Shown piece after piece: positions 54,698 to 64,000 of a DNA stretch of 64,000 bases. Position 1 is the first letter of the stretch. Each line of letters opens with the position of its first letter. The stretch is from the NCBI GenBank assembly GCA_903896925.1, contig CAITZM010000016.1:859-64858 (forward strand), read 5' to 3'. The notes under the pieces are model-generated. The model made no database searches. It was not told where the DNA came from and saw only the letters and a program-made list of their open reading frames with translations. The stretch is from an uncultured Lentisphaerota bacterium (GTDB lineage: Bacteria > Verrucomicrobiota > Kiritimatiellia > CAIQIC01). The position numbers were made by a program, and so were the translations under genes.

Positions 54698-55534
54698 TTA
54701 TTTCCGGCGGCGTACGTAGAGCAGCGCACCCAATCCGCTCAGGGCGCACAGGGTCAGCGTCGTTGGCTCGGGGATGGCGACCACGCCGGTGTTGAGTCCG
54801 GCCAGGGCTTCCTCTGCGGTGGTGACCACCAGGATATTGTCGTAGTTCCGGGTTTCCGGGCTGACAGGATCAGCCGCCAACCGCAAGGAGCCGATGGTGG
54901 TCAGGGCTCCCTCCAGCACGAAACCGCTGACCAGGGGCGAGCCCAAGCTCACGCCGTCCGTCAGGTTGGCGTCCACATACAAGTCACCCGTGTTAAAGGT
55001 GCCGCTGCTGCCCGTGTCGTAAAAGTGCGCCAGCACCGCGATGTTTTCGCCGTCGGCCACCGTATAACCATCGATAGACGTGCCGTACATGGGTCCGCCC
55101 AAGCGGACCTGCATGTTATTTCCCCACCACCCGGCCATGCCGGCAAACTGCGTGTTTCGGGGATCGGCCGGGAGCGATGTGTCCGCCAACAGGTGCCCGC
55201 CTCCCGCCCAAGTATCCGGGGCCTGCGGGCGCATTAAAAAGCCCAGCCAGATGCCTTGCGCCGAGGCGCTGACCGGGTTGCTCAGGAATGCCATGGGATA
55301 CGCGGTGGCGGCAAGGTAGTTGCCTTGCGAGACGCCGTTGACCACAAATGGATCGGCGGTTTCCGTCGTGCAGCCGGCACCACTGCCGAAAACGGTTCCG
55401 CTCCAATCCACCCACGAGTTCGTATAGGCGCCGCTGTCCGCACCTGCCGAGAGGAATAGCACCTCCGCTCCTGCGCGCGGCAGTACCGCCAACAACAAGA
55501 CGGCCGTTGAACAAGCGAGCAACCTGGTTTTCAT
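54698..55534 (-). CDS. PEP-CTERM sorting-domain secreted protein
   Basis: Trimmed to the ATG at 55534 (MKTRLLACSTAVLLLAVLPRAGA, signal peptide). The C-terminus VAIPEPTTLTLCALSGLGALLYVRRRK is the PEP motif, then a TM segment, then a basic tail. Confidence 0.75.
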   Translation of the reverse strand: MKTRLLACSTAVLLLAVLPRAGAEVLFLSAGADSGAYTNSWVDWSGTVFGSGAGCTTETADPFVVNGVSQGNYLAATAYPMAFLSNPVSASAQGIWLGFLMRPQAPDTWAGGGHLLADTSLPADPRNTQFAGMAGWWGNNMQVRLGGPMYGTSIDGYTVADGENIAVLAHFYDTGSSGTFNTGDLYVDANLTDGVSLGSPLVSGFVLEGALTTIGSLRLAADPVSPETRNYDNILVVTTAEEALAGLNTGVVAIPEPTTLTLCALSGLGALLYVRRRK

Positions 55535-55764
55535 GTGTATTTGATTCCTCATGGGTTGAGTGCGCGGCACGTGGATTCCCTGCGCCCGGCAGGGAGGCCC
55601 AAGCCGGACCGGTAAGCGCGGGGCAGACAGCGGATGGAGGGAGGGCACCGTCTCACAAACGCACGCTGGCATGGTAAAAGCACGGGCGAATTTTCGCGCT
55701 CTGTCCTGCAAAGTCAAGCCGTGCCGTGCCCGTTTCTAACTTGAAGCCCAACCCGCGCCCCTCA

Positions 55765-58125
55765 TCACTCCCGCATCACGCCGAGGCGGAGGAAGGGCAG
55801 GATCTCGTCGCGCAGCGGACGGCTCAGGTCGAAGCAGACGAAGCCGGTCGCGCCGAGCTTGCGCAGGCCGACGATCTGCGCGATGGCCTGGTCGGGCCGC
55901 AGGCGGCTCTCCATCGCCGCGATGCCGAGGCCGGGATAGACCCGCCCCTCCGCGCCGGGCAGCGCGAGGTGCTGCGCGGTCCGTGCGAGGAACACGTTCG
56001 TGTCCTCGGTGTAGTTCATCGGGCAGACGAAATCCACATAGCCGTTCTTCAGCCACACCGCCCAGTCCTGGCCGACGCTGGCGGCGCACTCGGGGTAGCC
56101 GGCGTAGACCGCGGCGGATACCTTGATGCCGGGCCGCGCGGCGCGGACGCGCTGGCTGACCTGCCGCACGAAGGCGGTCATCGTGGCGCAGCGGAAGCGC
56201 TCGAACTCGGCGGCGAACGCCCCGCCGTGCGCACAGCTGGCGGGCCAGCCGCGGACGGCGCTGCCGCGTGCCGCTTCGAACGCGCGGCGTGCCGCCGGCG
56301 AGAAGTCCACCGACCGGTCGTTGTAGCGGATGTAGTCGAGGTGCAGCCCGTCCACCGGATAGCGGCGCACGAGGTCCTCGTAGGTGTTGAGCAACATGGC
56401 CACATTGTCGGGATGCGAGGGGCTCAGCCACGTCGTGCTCTTGCCGGCGGAGGTCTCCTGCAGGCGGCCGGCGCGGCGCAGCCGCGTCATGAACTCGTCC
56501 GGTGCGTTGCCGGGGTTCCAGCAGACGGCCCAGCAGTGCAACTGCAGCCCGCTGGCGTGCGCCGCGGTGACCGCGGCGGCCAGCTGGTCGCCGAAGCGCG
56601 CGCTGCTGAACGAGCGCGGCAGCGTGGCGCTCGGGAAGTGGGCCACGCCGCCCCAGAGCAGGTTGGCGAACACCGCGTTGAAGCGGCCCGCCGCCAGCTC
56701 GCGGCAGGTGCGCGACCAGTCGCCGGGATAGAGGCCCAGCCCCGAGTGTTCCCAGACCCCGCGCAGCTCGCCTCGCCGGGGTGCCTGCGCCGAGGCGTAG
56801 GCCACGGTGACGGCGTGGTCGAGCGCACGGCACTGGTCGACGGCCTCGGCGTAGCGGCGCGCCGCGAAGAGCGGGGGCAGGCCGGCGTAAATTTTCTCCG
56901 CCTCCGGCAGCGCGCCGAGCAGCGCGCGCGAGGCGCCGAAGGAGGCCGTGCCCACGACGCAGCCCGCGCGGTAATAGGCCTGCGCGGCGGCCTGCGGCCA
57001 GATGGCGGGGTCGAGCTGGCCGAGCAGCCCGAGCAGCATGCGTTGCTTGTTGGCCAGGTCCTCGTCCTGCAACACGTGCGCGAACCACACGCCCTGCGCC
57101 GAAGCCGTCCAGGCGGGCGCCGACGCGCGCTGCCCGGCCGCGTTTTCCCACCACGCGATCGTGCGTGCGGTGTCATCGGCCGGCAGCGCGGGCTGGATGT
57201 TGCTCGACTCCTGGGCGACGCAGGCGGGCACGTTCCAGCCGGCGGGGTCGGTGAAACGGAAGGCGCTCCAGCGGCCGGGCACCTCGGTGCGCTGGTAAGC
57301 GCCCAGCCTCAGGTGCATCTGCCTTGCCAGCGCCTCGTTGGCGCTGTAGCAGACCATCAGCTTGCCGCCGCGCTCGAGCAGGGCTGTCAGCGCGCGGGCC
57401 TCCCCTTTCAGGGGTTGCGAATTATAGGGCAGGATGGCCACGCTGGCGTTCTTGAGCGCCTCCGGCGTGTCGTCATCTGTCACCACGTTGTGGCCGATGC
57501 CGAGGTTGCTCAACCAACCCGAGATCAGCTTGGTCGCGCGCTGCGCCGACTTGCGCTCCGCCGGACCGTCCACCGACGAGGTCCCCTGCACCACAACCAC
57601 CCCGCCGAGGCGCGCGCTGATGCCGTGCACGACGAGGCGGACATCGTTCGACTGGCCCCGCCACGCCGAGACGCGGAGTGCTTCGATCTTTTGCCAGCCC
57701 GCCGGCCTGTCTTCCATGGTGAATTCGCTGCGCGGCAGGATCACCCGCTGCCGTCCCGCCCCGGTCAGGTACGCGCTGCCGCTGAACCAGCCCTTGCCGC
57801 TCTTGAGATGGATGGTCAGCGACTTGAACGCCGCCGGGCGGTCGCATGTCAGGTCGAGCTCGAGGCACGTCGCCCCCGCGAGGTTGGCGGAGAGCTCATG
57901 GTCCCAATAGGCGCGGTGGGTCAGGGTGAACGGACACGGGAATTCGACGCCGCCGCCTTCCGCGGCGTGCGGCCGCGGCCCACGCTCCTGGGCCTGCCAC
58001 CCGTCCGCCTGGCCCCCGCCATCGAGCCGCACGGCGCCCTCGGTGACCGGCGCGTTGCCCCAGCCCCAAGCCCGGCAGGAAGCCGCCACCGCCAACGACA
58101 CGACCAGCAGCCAAGTTTTTTTCAC
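55765..58125 (-). CDS. Large lipoprotein with a GHL10/DUF187-like TIM-barrel glycoside-hydrolase-like domain (tentative)
   Basis: 786 aa with signal peptide MKKTWLLVVSLAVAASC. GLHLDYIRYND and DFVCPMNY resemble GHL10-type proteins. Low certainty on the family. Confidence 0.4.
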   Translation of the reverse strand: MKKTWLLVVSLAVAASCRAWGWGNAPVTEGAVRLDGGGQADGWQAQERGPRPHAAEGGGVEFPCPFTLTHRAYWDHELSANLAGATCLELDLTCDRPAAFKSLTIHLKSGKGWFSGSAYLTGAGRQRVILPRSEFTMEDRPAGWQKIEALRVSAWRGQSNDVRLVVHGISARLGGVVVVQGTSSVDGPAERKSAQRATKLISGWLSNLGIGHNVVTDDDTPEALKNASVAILPYNSQPLKGEARALTALLERGGKLMVCYSANEALARQMHLRLGAYQRTEVPGRWSAFRFTDPAGWNVPACVAQESSNIQPALPADDTARTIAWWENAAGQRASAPAWTASAQGVWFAHVLQDEDLANKQRMLLGLLGQLDPAIWPQAAAQAYYRAGCVVGTASFGASRALLGALPEAEKIYAGLPPLFAARRYAEAVDQCRALDHAVTVAYASAQAPRRGELRGVWEHSGLGLYPGDWSRTCRELAAGRFNAVFANLLWGGVAHFPSATLPRSFSSARFGDQLAAAVTAAHASGLQLHCWAVCWNPGNAPDEFMTRLRRAGRLQETSAGKSTTWLSPSHPDNVAMLLNTYEDLVRRYPVDGLHLDYIRYNDRSVDFSPAARRAFEAARGSAVRGWPASCAHGGAFAAEFERFRCATMTAFVRQVSQRVRAARPGIKVSAAVYAGYPECAASVGQDWAVWLKNGYVDFVCPMNYTEDTNVFLARTAQHLALPGAEGRVYPGLGIAAMESRLRPDQAIAQIVGLRKLGATGFVCFDLSRPLRDEILPFLRLGVMRE

Positions 58126-58420
58126 GCGTATTTCCTTTGCACGGCGGCCAATCTAGCGGAGAACCCGCCCCGGTCAAGGCGCATTTCCGACCTGCGCGTG
58201 GCGGCATGGATTTGTTGCGCGCGAACCGGTGCCATGCGCCGTGGCATACTGGGGGCTTCTCGCTGCAGAACCTTTCGCGCAGGTGCTACCCGGAGGGCCG
58301 ATGAGTACGGGTAACGCGCCAAGGCGTAATGCCTCCTCTGTCGTGTTTTATTTTTCCGGTTTGGCGCCTCAACGGTAAAAAATCCCGGTGTTCCCCGGCG
58401 TTTTCTGTCACTCGTCGTGG

Positions 58421-58434
58421 CTTTCCCAGGAAAG
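58421..58434. promoter_or_regulatory. Palindrome CTTTCCCAGGAAAG upstream of the FAD-oxidase gene, followed by a CT-rich tract with 4 copies of the YTCTGAY heptamer (about 58506..58535)
   Basis: Read directly. Confidence 0.3.
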
Positions 58435-58585
58435 AGTTTTTGCTTTGCAGCAGTACCCTCTGTGACCTCCTCCGACCTCCGCGTCCTCTGCGGTGAAATC
58501 TTTTCTCCGCTGTCTTCTGACCTCTGATCTCTGACTTCTGATCGCTTTCTGCCGCCGCTCTCCGCTCTCGACGCGGCGGGGGCGA

Positions 58586-60175
58586 GTGCGGCATATTCCG
58601 GCCATGCAAAACGATTTCATATCCACGAACGTGGCGGCGGAGCATCCGGATTTTCTGCGCGACGAGTCGCGGCGCAGCGGCACGGCCGAGGCGCTCGCGC
58701 AGCCGCGCACGGAGGCGGAACTGCGCGCGGCTTTGGCCCTGGCGCAGGAGCGCGGATGGTCCGTCACCGTGCAGGGCGGGCGCACCGGCATCGCCGGCGG
58801 CGCGGTGCCGGAGGGCGGTCTGGTCGTCAATCTCGGGCGGATGAACCGCGTGCTGGGATTGCGCCAGGCGGGCGGCGGCTTTGTCGTGACGGCGCAACCG
58901 GGCGTGGTGCTGCAGGACCTGCGGCGCATGTTGCATGCGCGCGAGTTCGCCACCGCGGACTGGAGCGCGGAGTCGCTGGCGGCGCTGGCCGCACTGCGCG
59001 CCGCACCGCCGCAAGTTTTCCCGCCCGACCCGACGGAGACGACCGCAACGCTCGGCGGCATGGCGGCGTGCAACGCGTCGGGCGCCTGTACCTTCCGCTA
59101 TGGCGCGACGCGCCGGCATATCGCCGGCCTGCGGCTGATGCTGCCGGATGGCGACGTGCTCGCGCTGCCACGCGGAGCGGCGCAGGCGCAGGGCCGCGAG
59201 TTTGCGCTGGAGACGGTGGCGCACCGCCGGCTCGCGGGGCGCCTGCCGGCCTATCGACTGCCCGCGGTGAAGAACGCCGCCGGCTTCTTCGCCGCCGACG
59301 GGATGGACCTGGTGGACCTGTTCATCGGCGCGGAAGGCACGCTGGGCATCCTGACGGAGTTGGACCTGCAGTTGCAGCCGGCGCCGGTGGCACGCTGGGG
59401 TCTGATGATGTTCTTCCCCGACCAGGCGGCGGCGGTCCGGCTGGTCCACGCGGCGCGCGCGGCAGGCGATGCCCGGCTGGCGGCGCTGGAGTTTTTCGAT
59501 GCGCGTGCGCTGGCCCTGCTGCGGCGCGAACGGCCGCGGATGACGGCGCTGGGGGCGCTGCCGGAGATGCCGGCGCACTTCCACACGGCGGTCTACGCCG
59601 AGGTGCACGCGGCCGATGAGGATGCCGCGGCGGAGTCCGCGACGGCCCTCGCCGGGCTGATGACCGCCAGCGGTGGCAACGAAGACGCCTGCTGGCTGGC
59701 GACGAGCGACCCGGACATGGAAAAGTTCAAGGCGTTCCGCCATGCGCTGCCGGAAGCGGTCAACCACCTGATCGACGAGCGGCGCAAGACCGAGCCGACG
59801 CTGACGAAGCTCGGCACCGACATGGCCGTGCCGGATGCGCATCTGGGCGCGATCCTCGAACGCTACGAGCGCGACCTCACGGCGGCGGGGCTGGACTACG
59901 TCATCTTCGGCCACATCGGCAACAACCACCTGCACGTGAACATCCTCCCCGCCAGCAAGGCGGACTACCAGCGCGGCCGCGAACTCTACCTGGCTTGGGC
60001 ACGCGACGTGGTGGGGTGGGGCGGCACGGTCGCCGCCGAGCACGGCATCGGCAAGCTCAAGGCGCCGATGCTCGAGGTCATGTTCGGCGCGGCGGGCATC
60101 GCGGAGATGCGCGCGGTGAAGCGCGTCTTCGATCCCGCCGGCCGCCTCAGCCCCGGCAACCTGTTCAGCGCGTGA
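58586..60175 (+). CDS. FAD-binding PCMH-type oxidoreductase (GlcD/D-lactate dehydrogenase-like)
   Basis: 529 aa. SVTVQGGRTGIAGGAVPEGGLVVNLGRMNRV matches the FAD_binding_4 signature. The ATG at 58604 (MQNDFIST) is an alternative start. Confidence 0.75.
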   Translation: MRHIPAMQNDFISTNVAAEHPDFLRDESRRSGTAEALAQPRTEAELRAALALAQERGWSVTVQGGRTGIAGGAVPEGGLVVNLGRMNRVLGLRQAGGGFVVTAQPGVVLQDLRRMLHAREFATADWSAESLAALAALRAAPPQVFPPDPTETTATLGGMAACNASGACTFRYGATRRHIAGLRLMLPDGDVLALPRGAAQAQGREFALETVAHRRLAGRLPAYRLPAVKNAAGFFAADGMDLVDLFIGAEGTLGILTELDLQLQPAPVARWGLMMFFPDQAAAVRLVHAARAAGDARLAALEFFDARALALLRRERPRMTALGALPEMPAHFHTAVYAEVHAADEDAAAESATALAGLMTASGGNEDACWLATSDPDMEKFKAFRHALPEAVNHLIDERRKTEPTLTKLGTDMAVPDAHLGAILERYERDLTAAGLDYVIFGHIGNNHLHVNILPASKADYQRGRELYLAWARDVVGWGGTVAAEHGIGKLKAPMLEVMFGAAGIAEMRAVKRVFDPAGRLSPGNLFSA

Positions 60176-60182
60176 TTCCGCT

Positions 60183-61004
60183 TCACCTGTCGAGTGTGTC
60201 GTCCGCCAGGATGGCGCGGGTGGAGGCGAGTTGCAGGAAGCGTTGCTGGCAGTTCTGCGAGCGGCGATAGGTTTTGTGGTCCACGTAGCTGGCACCCCGC
60301 TCGCACGCATCTTTGGTCTGCTCGCGCGCGACGGGTTGGATGCCCTGCGCTATGAGCGTGATGGCGCTGGCGTGGAAGAGGTAGCGCGAAAGCGCAAACG
60401 CGGAGAGGCCGCGGATGCGATGGCCGGCGCGCACCAGCTGCTCGTTGACCTCGCAGGTGATGTCCAGGCTGTTGGCCGTGCTGAAACGGCAGCCGAGCTG
60501 GCGGAAGGGCGCGGTCTCGTAGAGCGCGCAGAACGAGCGCAACGCCGGCACCCCCGGCGCGAGTTCACGGACGCGCAGATGCTGCAGCACCGCCGACGGC
60601 AGCCAGAGCGGCGTGCGTACCGGCACCCGCTGGTGGCGCGGTCCGACGGCCGCATACCCGGTGCGCGCCAGGTCCAGCAGGTAGTCCAGCCAGCCGGGAT
60701 GATGCACGTAGGTGTCGGAATGCATCAGCAGAAAATAGGGCGTGGTGACCAGGGGCACGGCGGCGTTCAGGGCCTCGAAGTGCGCTTTCCAGCAGTGGTT
60801 GGTGCAGCCGGTGGTGACGAGTTCGATCCAGGGCACGGCGCGCAGATAGTCCAGCGAGGCGTCGCGCGAGCCGTTGTCGAGCACGCGGACGAGGCAGGGC
60901 TGGCGGGTGAATTTGCGGAGCGAGCGCAGGCAGAGCTTGATGGAATCCAGCGTTTGAAAGTGCGGGATCAAAACTGTGACCGCGGTGTTTCCCCTGTCTT
61001 CCAT
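60183..61004 (-). CDS. Family 2 glycosyltransferase
   Basis: The start was trimmed to the internal ATG (MEDRGNTAVTVLIPHFQTLDSIKLCLRSL...VLDNGSRD, GT2 DxD-type fold). The track ORF's 47-codon N-extension would overlap the divergent coiled-coil gene. Confidence 0.65.
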   Translation of the reverse strand: MEDRGNTAVTVLIPHFQTLDSIKLCLRSLRKFTRQPCLVRVLDNGSRDASLDYLRAVPWIELVTTGCTNHCWKAHFEALNAAVPLVTTPYFLLMHSDTYVHHPGWLDYLLDLARTGYAAVGPRHQRVPVRTPLWLPSAVLQHLRVRELAPGVPALRSFCALYETAPFRQLGCRFSTANSLDITCEVNEQLVRAGHRIRGLSAFALSRYLFHASAITLIAQGIQPVAREQTKDACERGASYVDHKTYRRSQNCQQRFLQLASTRAILADDTLDR

Positions 61005-61135
61005 GGCAATGCATCTCTTTCGCGGCGGAAGCATAAACAAAGTTGGCGGCACGGAAAGCTTTTTCCGGCGCGCCGGAAGTGGCGCCTGTCGCGCGGCTTG
61101 CGTTTCCTCTGGGTTCATGGTAGGTGAAAAGGACT

Positions 61136-64000
61136 GTGAATACATGGTTTTTACGCAAGCCGGACGGCGAAATTTACGGGCCGGTGGAGCAGTCGGAACT
61201 GGTGCGGTGGGCCAGCACCGACCGCATCGCGCCGGATGACGATATTTCGTCGGACCGCAAGGAGTGGCTGTCCGCGGCCAAGATGCCCGGGCTCAAGCTC
61301 AACTGGATGATCGAGTGGCCGGACGGTCATCGCGCCGGCCCTTATCATGTCAGCTCGCTCGGCGAAATGCTCGCCGACGGCGAACTGGAGGGCAACGAAG
61401 CCGTCCGGCACGTGCATTCCCAGCAGGCGGCCTCGTTGCTGGAGACCCTGCAGCAAGGGTTGCTGGCCGGCGAACTCCACCTCGGAGAGGGCGCCCTCAC
61501 CGCGGCCTTGTGCGGGATGATGCGCATCCAGACCGAGGACCCGCTGGCCGTCACCAGCCTCCTGGCCGGCGCACCGCCGGTGCAACCCGCTCCGGTCGTT
61601 TCCGCGGCGCCGGTACCGGTGGCGCCGGTCCCCTCGTCCCCGCTGCCGGCCGACCCAGGCGAGGGTGTGCGGAGGGCGGAGGCTGCCGGGGCACCCCAGG
61701 CTAAACTTTCCCTCACGCCCGCACCCGCGGCTCCGGCCGACGCCGGACAGAGCGACGAACTGGCCAAGGTGCGTGCGGCGCTCGCGGCACAGGTGGAGCA
61801 GGCGGCAGACGTCGCCCGGCAGTTGCAGGCGCAGCAGGCCGAGGCCGGCCGGTTGCGGCAGGAATGCGCAGCGCTGCAAAAGGCGCAAGCGGCGGAACGC
61901 CAGACGGCACAGCAGCAGGCGGCCACGCTGCAGCAGGTGCAGGCCCAACTCAAGGTAGCGCGAGCCGAGGCGCAGACGGCCAGCACCGCCACGGAAGCGC
62001 TACAGAAGACCCTGGATACCCTGCAGCGCGAACAGGGCGAGCGCGAGGCGGCTGCGCGCCGCGACGAACAAAGCGTCCTGAAGTTCAAGGAGCTACAGGC
62101 CGAGCAGGAAAAGCAACTGGCGGCGGCCCGCCTGCAGGCCGAGCAACAGGCCACCGCCTGCCAACAGGCGCAGGCGCAGTTGGCGCGCGCGCTCGCCGAA
62201 GCTGCGGCGACGGCCAAGGATCGCGACACCCTGCGGACCAACCTCCACGCGGCGGAGCGTGCCGTCGGGCGGCTGGCCGAGGAGCGCCAGCAGAGCGAGA
62301 CCGGGCTGCGTGCCGAGACGCAGGCGGTCAGCGCCGTCCGGGATGCGCTTCAGAAAAAACTCGAAGCCGGTCAGCGCGAACTGAGCGAGCGCGAGGCCAC
62401 CGTGCGTCAGCACGAGCAGAACGCGAAAAATTTCCAGGTGCAGGTGGCCGATGCGGAGAAGCAGCTGGTTGCCGCCCGCGCGCAGGCCGAGCAGCAGGGC
62501 GCCGCGCTCAAGCAGGCGCAGGATCAGCTGGCGGCCCGGCAGCGCGAGTTGGGCGAGCGCGATGTCGCCGTGCGCCAGCACGAGCAGCAGTCGAAGAGCT
62601 TCCAGACGCAGCTGGCCGATACGGGCATAAAATTCGCCGCGGCCCGTGCGCAGGTGGAGCAGCAGGGTGCCGCGCTCAAGCAGGCGCAGGATCAGCTGGC
62701 GGCCCGGCAGCGCGAGCTGGGCGAGCGCGATGCCGCCGCACGGCAGCATGAGCAGAACGCGAAGAATTTACAGGCGCAGGTGGCCGGTGCGGAGAAGCAG
62801 CTGGCGGCGGCCCGGGCGCAGGCCGAGCAGCAGGGCGCCGCCCTCAAACAGGCCCAGGAACAGCTCACGGCCCGCCAAGCCCAGCTCGACGCCGCCACGA
62901 AGCAGCGCACGGCGCTGGAGACCGAACGTGCGGGGCTGGTCAAGCAGCGCGACGCGCTGCAAAGCGAGCGCGAGGCCGCGCTGAAGAAGGCCGGCGAGCA
63001 GGAGCGGCTGGCGGAGGAGCGTCAGAAGGCCACCGCGCAGGCGCGAAACGAGGCGCAGACCGCCTTCGCCGCCCGGGACACCGCGCAAAAAACGCTGGAG
63101 GGCGTACGCCGCGAACTCGAAGAGACCAGCAGCAAGCTGGCGGAGCGGGATTTTTCGCTCCGGCAAGCCCAGCAGCAACTGCGCAAGCTCGAGGAGCAAG
63201 TGGTCGGGGCCGAGGCCGCGCTGGCGGAGGCGCAGCAGCAGCGCGACCGCGCGGAGGCCATCGCCGGCGACGCCGAGGCCGCGGTGGAGGCGGAGCGGGA
63301 AACGGATATTCTCAAGCGCGCCGCCTTGCAGCTGGAGCGGGACAATGCCGTCGAACGCTCCGAGGAGCGTGGCCGGTTTTGCGAGGAGATCTCGGCCGAG
63401 AAACGGCGCATGGAGCAACAGCTGCGCGGCGAGCTGAAGCAGGCGCAGGCCGCACGCGACGAAGCGCAGCGGGTGGTCGCGGATGCGCAGCGCGAAGCGG
63501 AGCAGGGGCGCGGGCGGGTGACAGCGGCCGAGGAGCAACTGCGCCAGCAGCAGCGCGCGGCGCAGGAGGCCCAGCAGCAGCTGGCCAGACTTTCTGCGCA
63601 GGTGGCGCAGGCCCAGTCCCTGCAACGGCAGGCCGAAACCGACGTGCAGCGGGAGCGCGAGGCCCGGAAGCGGCTCGAGACCGAAGCCCAGCAGGCGCAG
63701 ACCCTGCAGCGGCAGGCCGAAACCGACTTGCAGCGGGAGCGTGATACCCGGAAGCGGCTTGAGACCGAGGCGCAACAGGCGCAGGCCGAGCGCAGCCGGC
63801 AGGAAGCCGCGGTACAGCAACTGCGTCGCGATCTGGAGGCGGCCCGGCAGCGCGCGCCGGCCGTGCCTGCGCCGCCGCCCCAAGCCGACAAAGAAGCCGC
63901 AGAAGTGCGGCGCATGGGAGCCGAGGCGCAGCAGGCGCGCGAGGCCCGACAGCGGCTGGAGTCCGAACTGCAGCAGGCCCGGCAGGCCCGGCAGGGCTTG
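61136..64000 (+). CDS. Giant coiled-coil protein with two N-terminal GYF-like (DUF4339-type) domains; 3' end beyond the window end
   Basis: My own translation from about 61136 (GTG; the frame has TWFLRKPDGEIYGPVEQSELVRWASTDRIAPDDDISSDRKEWLSAAKMPG, then a second WMIEWPDGHRAGPYHVSSLGEMLADGELEG). A Pro-rich linker follows, then more than 800 aa of Q/A/E/R-rich heptad sequence with no stop to position 64000. It is absent from the ORF track because there is no stop in the window. The listed ORFs 61151..63915 on both strands are shadows of it. Confidence 0.7.
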   Translation, partial: MNTWFLRKPDGEIYGPVEQSELVRWASTDRIAPDDDISSDRKEWLSAAKMPGLKLNWMIEWPDGHRAGPYHVSSLGEMLADGELEGNEAVRHVHSQQAASLLETLQQGLLAGELHLGEGALTAALCGMMRIQTEDPLAVTSLLAGAPPVQPAPVVSAAPVPVAPVPSSPLPADPGEGVRRAEAAGAPQAKLSLTPAPAAPADAGQSDELAKVRAALAAQVEQAADVARQLQAQQAEAGRLRQECAALQKAQAAERQTAQQQAATLQQVQAQLKVARAEAQTASTATEALQKTLDTLQREQGEREAAARRDEQSVLKFKELQAEQEKQLAAARLQAEQQATACQQAQAQLARALAEAAATAKDRDTLRTNLHAAERAVGRLAEERQQSETGLRAETQAVSAVRDALQKKLEAGQRELSEREATVRQHEQNAKNFQVQVADAEKQLVAARAQAEQQGAALKQAQDQLAARQRELGERDVAVRQHEQQSKSFQTQLADTGIKFAAARAQVEQQGAALKQAQDQLAARQRELGERDAAARQHEQNAKNLQAQVAGAEKQLAAARAQAEQQGAALKQAQEQLTARQAQLDAATKQRTALETERAGLVKQRDALQSEREAALKKAGEQERLAEERQKATAQARNEAQTAFAARDTAQKTLEGVRRELEETSSKLAERDFSLRQAQQQLRKLEEQVVGAEAALAEAQQQRDRAEAIAGDAEAAVEAERETDILKRAALQLERDNAVERSEERGRFCEEISAEKRRMEQQLRGELKQAQAARDEAQRVVADAQREAEQGRGRVTAAEEQLRQQQRAAQEAQQQLARLSAQVAQAQSLQRQAETDVQREREARKRLETEAQQAQTLQRQAETDLQRERDTRKRLETEAQQAQAERSRQEAAVQQLRRDLEAARQRAPAVPAPPPQADKEAAEVRRMGAEAQQAREARQRLESELQQARQARQGL
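62404..62907 (+). repeat. Three tandem 168-bp (56-aa) coding repeats (RQHEQNAKNFQVQVADAEKQLVAARAQAEQQGAALKQAQDQLAARQRELGERD...); a further 2 x 84-bp repeat lies at about 63621..63788
   Basis: Read directly in the coiled-coil gene frame. The copies are about 85-90% identical at protein level. Confidence 0.6.

Follow-up and report, generated by a model that had tools for sequence, protein, structure and literature searches.

A predicted cytoplasmic coiled-coil protein with paired GYF_2 domains in an uncultured Lentisphaerota bacterium

The gene and the architecture of its product

The stretch of DNA considered here (the window: 64,000 nucleotides of contig CAITZM010000016.1 from an uncultured Lentisphaerota bacterium) ends inside a plus-strand gene, of which the 5' 955 codons lie at 61136-64000 and the product of which carries two N-terminal GYF_2 domains, a proline-rich linker and a long coiled-coil rod. 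Translation of this GYF/coiled-coil gene gives zero stops and the frame is still open at the window end, 4-16 stops being found in each of the five other frames across the same interval, and so the uninterrupted frame of more than 950 codons from about 61136 claimed in a preliminary description of this DNA stands. An in-frame TAG (61121-61123) lies upstream of two candidate starts, GTG 61124 and GTG 61136, and the N-termini of homologues (MNTWFLRK) align with the second of these. The GC content at codon positions 1, 2 and 3 (0.82, 0.47 and 0.84) resembles that of the reference genes of the window, for ProRS and for a family 2 glycosyltransferase (GT2). Together with seven database homologues and a 912-residue orthologue at a related locus, L004, the open frame and the codon-position GC identify one genuine gene, cut by the window end.

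As the preliminary description remarked, the gene does not appear among the listed open reading frames (ORFs), and this is because the ORF tool omits any frame running past the end of its source. The overlapping ORFs that were listed at 61151-63915 on both strands have zero Pfam family matches and homologues confirm the frame of the long gene, and they are therefore, as had been supposed, artefacts, namely shadow ORFs such as are usual in a GC-rich gene with many Ala, Gln, Glu and Arg codons. The final residue in the window aligns to position 842 of 912 in the L004 protein and to about position 780 of 860 in the database relative P0001, and therefore some 70-80 residues are probably missing and the full-length protein would be of about 1,025-1,035 residues. 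On that estimate it is the longest member seen, and the word 'giant' used of it earlier is not justified. No exact match to the last 47 nucleotides of the window was found among the contigs of GTDB species-representative genomes, and the C-terminal tail and the downstream genes, which lie past the window end, are described here from the loci of relatives. Rfam and tRNA scans over the whole window gave no match.

The N-terminal head is the best defined part of the protein. Pfam GYF_2 (PF14237, formerly DUF4339) matches the whole protein in two stretches at 31.8 bits against a gathering score of 25.8 and is the sole Pfam family found there at E <= 1; scanned singly, module 1 (residues 4-53) scores 25.5 bits and module 2 scores 16.9 bits, and a precomputed PF14237 match is present in all seven database homologues. 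An AlphaFold2 (AF2) model of residues 1-135, built from an eight-sequence alignment and with a mean predicted local distance difference test score (pLDDT) of 78, has two beta-beta-alpha-beta-beta units and then two helices. Module 1 (residues 3-53; 61142-61294) is modelled with strands at 3-7, 13-18 and 36-38 and a helix at 19-27. Module 2 (residues 56-100; 61301-61435), the more diverged in sequence, is modelled with strands at 57-60, 66-70, 89-92 and 98-100 and a helix at 72-80, and its residues W57, D63, G64, G68, Y70, H71 and S73-L75 are invariant across the family. Two conserved helices with invariant columns (residues 101-134; 61436-61537; SLLxTL...LAGELxL..G.LTAAxC...R), modelled at 101-110 and 118-134, complete the head.

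When the head model was compared with the PDB by Foldseek, 13 of the 14 top matches were GYF domains (Smy2, GIGYF1/2, Arabidopsis 1wh2, Myxococcus GltJ 7z3c and CD2BP2), the ten best of these GYF matches having probabilities of 0.91-1.0 and target-normalised TM-scores of 0.45-0.62 at modest E-values of 0.02-0.09. Both the score and the modelled fold, in which an alpha helix lies against a small beta sheet, support membership of GYF_2, and so the two tandem DUF4339/GYF-like modules of the preliminary description are recovered, a GYF-like fold being what structure prediction returned. The canonical eukaryotic GYF family (PF02213) reaches 13.9 bits against a gathering score of 25.7 and the modules fall outside it; the positions of the Gly-Tyr-Phe signature read DRI and GEL, and in a profile search of PDB sequences GIGYF1/2 comes up no better than E = 0.15-0.38. 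Loss of the G-Y-F residues is the rule among bacteria, nearly all of whose GYF domains have others in their place (PMC11135422).

A linker rich in Pro and Ala follows (residues 135-205; 61538-61750), with 9-13 Pro in each window of 56 residues, and is predicted to be disordered, having a pLDDT below 50 and zero secondary structure in the AF2 model of the full-length protein. Its sequence and its length differ between homologues. The Pro-rich linker described earlier after the GYF modules is accordingly retained.

The remainder is dominated by a coiled-coil rod (residues 206-903; 61751-63844) composed of 23% A, 18% Q, 12.5% E and 12% R. The spectrum of hydrophobic residues over 206-955 has a single dominant peak at a period of 3.5, and most 56-residue windows within that range have a heptad signal of z = 2-6 against shuffled sequences. 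The AF2 model of the full-length protein is of low confidence (pLDDT 61.5) and was used for secondary structure only, not for a fold search; in it, helices at 209-358, 366-493, 505-653 and 672-903 are separated by three short breaks. The earlier assignment of a long Q/A/E/R-rich heptad coiled coil thus finds agreement in both the 3.5 period and the modelled helices. With about 700 residues the rod would measure some 103 nm if fully extended. Within it lies a conserved core (residues ~660-770; 63113-63445; LAERDFSLRQ...ERDNAVERSEERGRFCEEISAEKRRMEQQLRGEL), the one segment of the rod where columns are identical in all eight aligned sequences, its motif ERDNAVER.EERG.FCEEISA.KRRMEQQLR being located at 733-766 of the window protein. 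The last modelled helix ends at 903, where a short Pro-rich hinge (PAVPAPPPQ; 63845-63883) breaks the rod; equivalent hinges occur in L004 and P0001, and alignments with these two indicate that a helical repeat restarts after the hinge and leaves the window (63884-64000). In relatives the 3' part holds a further Pro-rich stretch and then a conserved tail, RPAPSSDLYCLPxRKxRDxF. Neither a signal peptide nor a transmembrane segment was detected in the window protein (maximum 19-residue Kyte-Doolittle mean 1.24), and it is therefore predicted to be cytoplasmic; its first GYF strand begins at residue 3.

Family membership and tandem repeats

The paired domain and the complete protein differ greatly in how widely they occur. 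A search of 5.8 billion protein clusters gave only seven relatives, P0001-P0007, of 606-860 residues. An exhaustive HMMER search with an N-terminal profile against 1.84 billion cluster representatives gave 593 matches at E < 1e-10, of which only about seven cover the profile over its whole length of 135 positions with scores above 230 bits. Therefore the paired GYF_2 module is common and the family that joins the GYF pair to a coiled coil and an SSDLYCLP tail is rare, the full 135-residue head, the conserved core and the tail being shared by only about 10 clusters. A broadened N-terminal alignment used in a word-indexed profile search returned only fragments and double-GYF proteins of about 190 residues. 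The family is taken here as P0001-P0007 and L004, and four features recur in all its members: the head is invariant, the linker is rich in Pro, the rod differs in length but has a single conserved core, and a Pro-rich spacer leads to the tail. The window protein conforms to it in its 135-residue head and its rod core. A scan of GTDB genomes found two metagenome-assembled genomes (MAGs) labelled 'uncultured Lentisphaerae bacterium', from freshwater lakes, and the 912-residue protein of L004, which ends in the short peptide, is the closest relative.

The head of the window protein is 68-82% identical to those of the seven database members and 92% identical to that of L004, overall identity to relatives being 37-50% (37% for P0007, at locus L001). 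Rod length ranges across the family from about 300 to about 700 residues. The tail is kept even in the distant members P0020 and P0050, as SSDLYR[IL]P, both of which keep the head also, and among all loci examined the motif was found solely at the C-termini of the family. As judged from these alignments, purifying selection acts on the ends and the core only and rod length varies freely.

How the rod changes in length is suggested by its repeats. Tandem Repeats Finder (TRF) reports a 168-bp array of 3.0 copies at 62367-62874 (80% matches) and an 84-bp array of 2.1 copies at 63607-63784 (88% matches), by far the strongest tandem repeats in the window. They correspond to three 56-residue units head to tail (residues 411-578; 62366-62869), 70-80% identical as protein and 79-86% as DNA, and to two 28-residue units (63607-63784), 86% identical as protein and 87% as DNA. 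The 3 x 56 and 2 x 28 tandem arrays of the preliminary description are therefore present and the epithet 'near-identical' is not deserved, at 70-86% protein and 79-88% DNA identity. An origin of the repeats in misassembly was considered and is unlikely, because 12-21% of bases differ between copies and no identical stretch in register exceeds 33 nucleotides. Both periods are whole numbers of heptads (56 = 8 x 7 and 28 = 4 x 7), and therefore a duplication would keep the phase of the coiled coil.

An older, diverged 56-residue unit (residues 295-350; 62018-62185), with 48-57% protein identity to the copies of the array, sits 116 residues upstream of it. In L004 there are three 56-residue copies, spaced 116 and 77 residues apart and not in tandem, so that its first two copies have the same spacing of 116. 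A remnant of the unit at residues 667-703 lies inside the conserved core and is also detected in P0004, P0006 and P0007, which suggests that the unit arose in the core and was then amplified. One of the 28-residue copies is a 28-residue insertion relative to P0001, and the alignment breaks against L004 and P0001 come in blocks of repeat-unit size. From the L004 spacing and the P0001 insertion it follows that repeat-mediated length change between relatives is, on the alignments, real. The view that the repeats are sites of length variation is upheld in that both copy number and spacing differ between relatives.

Beyond the family, several of the double-GYF matches are fused to coiled coils, and many carry the pair C-terminally or in several copies. 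One of them, P0018 (MCX7590323.1; named by NCBI 'GYF domain-containing protein [Kiritimatiellia bacterium]'), is a 'double-headed' protein of 674 residues from Kiritimatiellia with a GYF pair at both ends of its coiled coil. Double-GYF_2 proteins of about 190 residues (P0155, P0159 and P0160) are labelled 'ribosomal protein L19E' by JGI, probably a mis-annotation. In planctomycetes, GYF pairs fused to a trypsin domain or to a transmembrane-rich region have been described by Aravind's group (PMC7159879), and the typical bacterial GYF protein has an N-terminal GYF domain and a membrane-associated module (PMC11135422). Full-text literature searches gave no description of a soluble family of GYF-pair and coiled-coil proteins, and the GYF/coiled-coil protein is not a member of any characterised family.

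Genes downstream and upstream

In all five loci with enough sequence (L001-L005) the GYF/coiled-coil gene is followed on the same strand, in this order, by genes for a Hanks-type kinase of about 395 residues (Pkinase), a 185-residue PduO-type cobalamin adenosyltransferase (Cob_adeno_trans) and a 308-residue MurB, and this block follows the gene although the genes upstream of it differ between L001-L005. The gaps before the kinase gene are 27-63 bp, the genes after it have overlaps of 4 bp, and a search of L004 gave no terminator-like site on the plus strand. Given this tight spacing and its place as the first gene of a same-strand block, the GYF/coiled-coil gene is probably co-expressed with the kinase in its clade. 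At the P0050 locus only a 23-residue start of the downstream gene is present, too short to be identified as a kinase.

The kinase (L004:12767-13951; also L001:12110-13291 and P0170-P0289) is soluble, having neither PASTA domains nor a transmembrane region, and has a Gly-rich loop, a catalytic Lys, HSD rather than HRD, DYG rather than DFG, and APE. It is 82% identical between L004 and L001, while their GYF proteins are far more diverged. Its family numbers at least 848 proteins at E < 1e-30, the best 120 being 61-93% identical, and the matches listed come from MAGs of Kiritimatiellia, Lentisphaerae and Verrucomicrobia. It looks like an uncharacterised housekeeping kinase of the class, with neighbours that differ by clade (PduO and MurB, or a flavodoxin-like protein).

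Upstream in the window, the GT2 gene (60183-61145, minus strand) is adjacent and divergent. Its listed start, ATG 61145, overlaps the start of the GYF/coiled-coil gene by 10 nucleotides. Similarity to the GT2 of L004 rises from weak to about 85% at Met48 (ATG 61004-61002), and therefore the true start is probably this ATG, which would leave a divergent intergenic region of about 130 bp, probably holding the promoters (61005-61135). A scan of 61005-61135 for sigma-70-type promoters and for terminators gave no match, a result that is uninformative for a bacterium of the Planctomycetes-Verrucomicrobia-Chlamydiae (PVC) group.

Further away are a gene for a GHL10 protein with a lipoprotein-like N-terminus (55765-58125, minus strand) and one (54698-55717, minus strand) whose product ends in IPEPTTLTLCALSGLGALLYVRRRK, a PEP-CTERM-like sorting tail (IPEP...RRRK). 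The latter product has no Pfam match at E <= 0.01, and the N-terminal extension of its ORF before MKTRLLACS is probably not translated. The three neighbours named in the preliminary description are thus all in place. Two long ORFs in this part of the window, 55726-58314 on the plus strand (862 residues) and 58286-60310 on the minus strand (674 residues), are shadow ORFs, with a third-position GC of 0.69-0.71 and no Pfam match; the true genes opposite them, for GHL10 at 55765-58125 (minus) and for an FAD-linked oxidase at 58586-60175 (plus), have a third-position GC of 0.90-0.92.

Function, rival explanations and known systems

Taken as a whole, the evidence is best read as describing a soluble cytoplasmic coiled-coil adaptor or scaffold, to which we give a probability of about 0.5. 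In a few model bacteria coiled-coil scaffolds are known to organise growth and polarity; from Lentisphaerae or Kiritimatiellia we know of no described example. GYF_2 domains abound in bacteria and, to our knowledge, only that of Myxococcus GltJ has a known ligand. In such an adaptor the rod would dimerise or oligomerise to form a tether that may reach about 100 nm, and the GYF heads might dock, by analogy with the GltJ-AglZ pair, on proline-rich peptides, be these in partner proteins or in the Pro-rich linkers of the protein itself. The C-terminal peptide (SSDLYCLPxRK) could serve as a second docking site or as a regulatory or phosphorylation site, and gain or loss of repeat units would alter rod length with the heptad phase kept. 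The weakest step is that the protein may be a scaffold or a substrate of the kinase in the control of growth or of peptidoglycan precursors.

Several points weigh against this adaptor or scaffold reading. Every binding step in this uncharacterised family is drawn by analogy; the full-length AF2 model cannot show oligomeric state; and the canonical PPG-type GYF ligand motif, which bacterial GYF domains may or may not require (PMC11135422), is absent from the linker. The downstream genes of the window itself are not visible, the block being seen in relatives. Three loci with kinases 64-69% identical have no GYF/coiled-coil gene, the neighbours being a radical-SAM aminomutase and a flavodoxin-like protein. 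For the 77% identical kinase P0186, on L015 and L016, a TadA-like deaminase gene faces the kinase gene directly with no GYF/coiled-coil gene, whereas in L002 and L005 the GYF/coiled-coil gene separates the same deaminase from the kinase (L015:5439-7269 against L002:2720-7163). From the two arrangements it follows that the gene either entered the space between the deaminase and kinase genes or dropped out of it as this clade diverged. Adjacency to the kinase is therefore restricted to one clade, and may reflect shared descent, an inherited position, and not functional coupling. The distant double-GYF coiled-coil proteins P0049 and P0088 likewise have neither the kinase neighbour nor the tail. 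Since kinase orthologues occur without the GYF gene, the claim of coupling has been downgraded, and a specific link to the kinase is held only as a tentative possibility.

The genes for P0049 (L008:4577-5149) and P0088 (L009:10219-10971) adjoin genes of LysM-domain proteins or lie close to them; at L008 an SLT lytic transglycosylase is encoded in the neighbourhood as well, and near P0088 is an Amuc_1100 gene, which suggests Verrucomicrobia. These LysM and SLT neighbours hint a second time, if weakly, at a tie between the superfamily and peptidoglycan.

A bolder version of the scaffold can be drawn, a one-polypeptide counterpart of the GltJ-AglZ interaction in which the paired GYF heads bind the Pro-rich linkers of neighbouring molecules, rods of 100 nm self-assemble into a PVC-specific cytoplasmic network or tether, the co-transcribed soluble Hanks kinase, conserved across the class, switches this via the SSDLY tail, and the whole is coupled to MurB-dependent precursor supply or to division; such a chain of events is improbable as it stands.

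The main rival is a filament-forming role, in which the protein is a self-assembling element of the intermediate filament-like kind (crescentin, FilP or Scy type), with a rod that polymerises and shapes the cell and GYF heads that are accessory. Coiled-coil-rich proteins of that kind are recognised by a long helical rod with heptad periodicity and by a cytoplasmic location, and the sequence predicts both, with a rod rich in A, Q, E and R and built of units in multiples of seven; the four long modelled helices with short breaks agree with it, and double-GYF coiled-coil relatives occur widely among PVC bacteria. However, only the ends and one core are conserved and the rod has anything from about 300 to about 700 residues, as would be expected of a spacer or tether rather than of a filament lattice with set dimensions, and there is no Pfam, NCBIfam or structural match to a known filament former. 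A cytoskeletal scaffold, as one option of the preliminary description had it, is thus plausible and rather unlikely.

The same description had also suggested a scaffold of the cell envelope or of exopolysaccharide production, working with the GT2, the PEP-CTERM protein and the GHL10 lipoprotein. The adjacent and divergent GT2 gene speaks for it, as do the GHL10 protein and the PEP-CTERM-like tail nearby and the fact that the GT2 neighbour is kept in L004 (79% identical). But L004 alone shares that neighbour, the four other family loci having unrelated genes upstream (for a TadA-like deaminase, GTP cyclohydrolase I or an unannotated product), and the protein itself lacks a signal for export, an anchor in the membrane and a PEP-CTERM motif, so that the neighbours do not bear out an envelope role and it must be considered quite unlikely. 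Still less can be said for an M-protein-like fibrillar adhesin on the cell surface whose repeats vary. It would share the long coiled coil and the tandem repeats of varying number, and a protein with neither signal peptide nor wall or membrane anchor, folded as GYF from residue 3, and with repeats 70-86% identical rather than near-identical as is typical of antigenic variation, makes a very poor candidate for one.

Weak NCBIfam matches over the rod raise the matter of a structural maintenance of chromosomes (SMC)-like, chromosome-organising protein. The best of these, TIGR02168, gives 46.6 bits against a cut-off of 567 and covers coiled coil only; ATPase heads with Walker A/B motifs are lacking, as is a hinge of that type, the N-terminus is the GYF pair, and the 912-residue L004 orthologue shows no ATPase head. 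Membership of the SMC family was rejected, the matches being sub-threshold and confined to the rod, and an SMC-like function has next to no likelihood. An anti-phage or conflict-system component using the adjacent kinase was entertained since the kinase domain scores against two PADLOC kinase models, PD-T4-6 and mad6, and since paired GYF domains have been noted in planctomycete conflict systems (PMC7159879). The GYF/coiled-coil protein, though, has no PADLOC match and those of the kinase are generic. The kinase is also conserved, at 60-90%, across the class in housekeeping contexts, its gene forming part of a run with PduO and MurB overlaps of 4 bp and adjoining TadA and PriA, which is not the setting of a variable defence island; a defence system was rejected for want of a match to the protein and for the generic nature of the kinase matches, and is very unlikely.

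For an uncharacterised family the result is a well-supported annotation, and not a demonstrated new mechanism. The family unites a duplicated GYF head, Pro-rich linkers, a variable rod and an invariant terminal peptide in one protein. If the interactions are real, it would offer a tractable way to study how the cytoplasm is organised and how kinases signal in PVC bacteria, and a natural case of rod length tuned by the heptad-preserving gain and loss of repeats.

Among known systems the other double-GYF proteins, P0018 included, share the paired GYF_2 module, P0018 differing in its GYF pairs at both ends and in having no tail. DivIVA, Wag31 and others are coiled-coil substrates or scaffolds of Hanks-type kinases tied to cell-wall synthesis, and the likeness to them is that in relatives' loci the coiled-coil gene adjoins a Ser/Thr kinase gene and murB. 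The window protein has no PF05103 match at E <= 1 and so falls outside the DivIVA family, and the kinase, by contrast, is soluble, has no PASTA domains and is a neighbour in one clade only. Crescentin, FilP/Scy and Helicobacter Ccrp proteins are cytoplasmic, with long heptad rods built from repeats and a structural or scaffolding role, and a cytoplasmic, long, repeat-built heptad rod is what the GYF/coiled-coil protein is predicted to have in common with them. There is no detectable sequence relationship, and GYF heads, a C-terminal peptide and a very variable rod length set it apart.

In the gliding focal adhesion of Myxococcus xanthus, the GYF domain of GltJ binds a proline-rich segment of AglZ via its beta sheet with micromolar affinity (PMC11135422). 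The likeness here is that the domain is in both cases of the GYF_2 type without G-Y-F residues, the GltJ structure 7z3c is among the Foldseek matches, and GYF, a Pro-rich segment and a long coiled coil (the last two in AglZ) are the elements involved. In contrast to that system all three elements are in one soluble polypeptide with the GYF domain duplicated; there is no zinc ribbon and no membrane domain, such as GltJ has, no receiver domain as in AglZ (no Response_reg match in Pfam at E <= 1), no MglA or Glt genes were seen in the family loci, and the host is a PVC bacterium and not a myxobacterium. By analogy, then, the protein may work most like a fusion of both sides of the GltJ-AglZ interaction and, more generally, like the coiled-coil-rich scaffolds.

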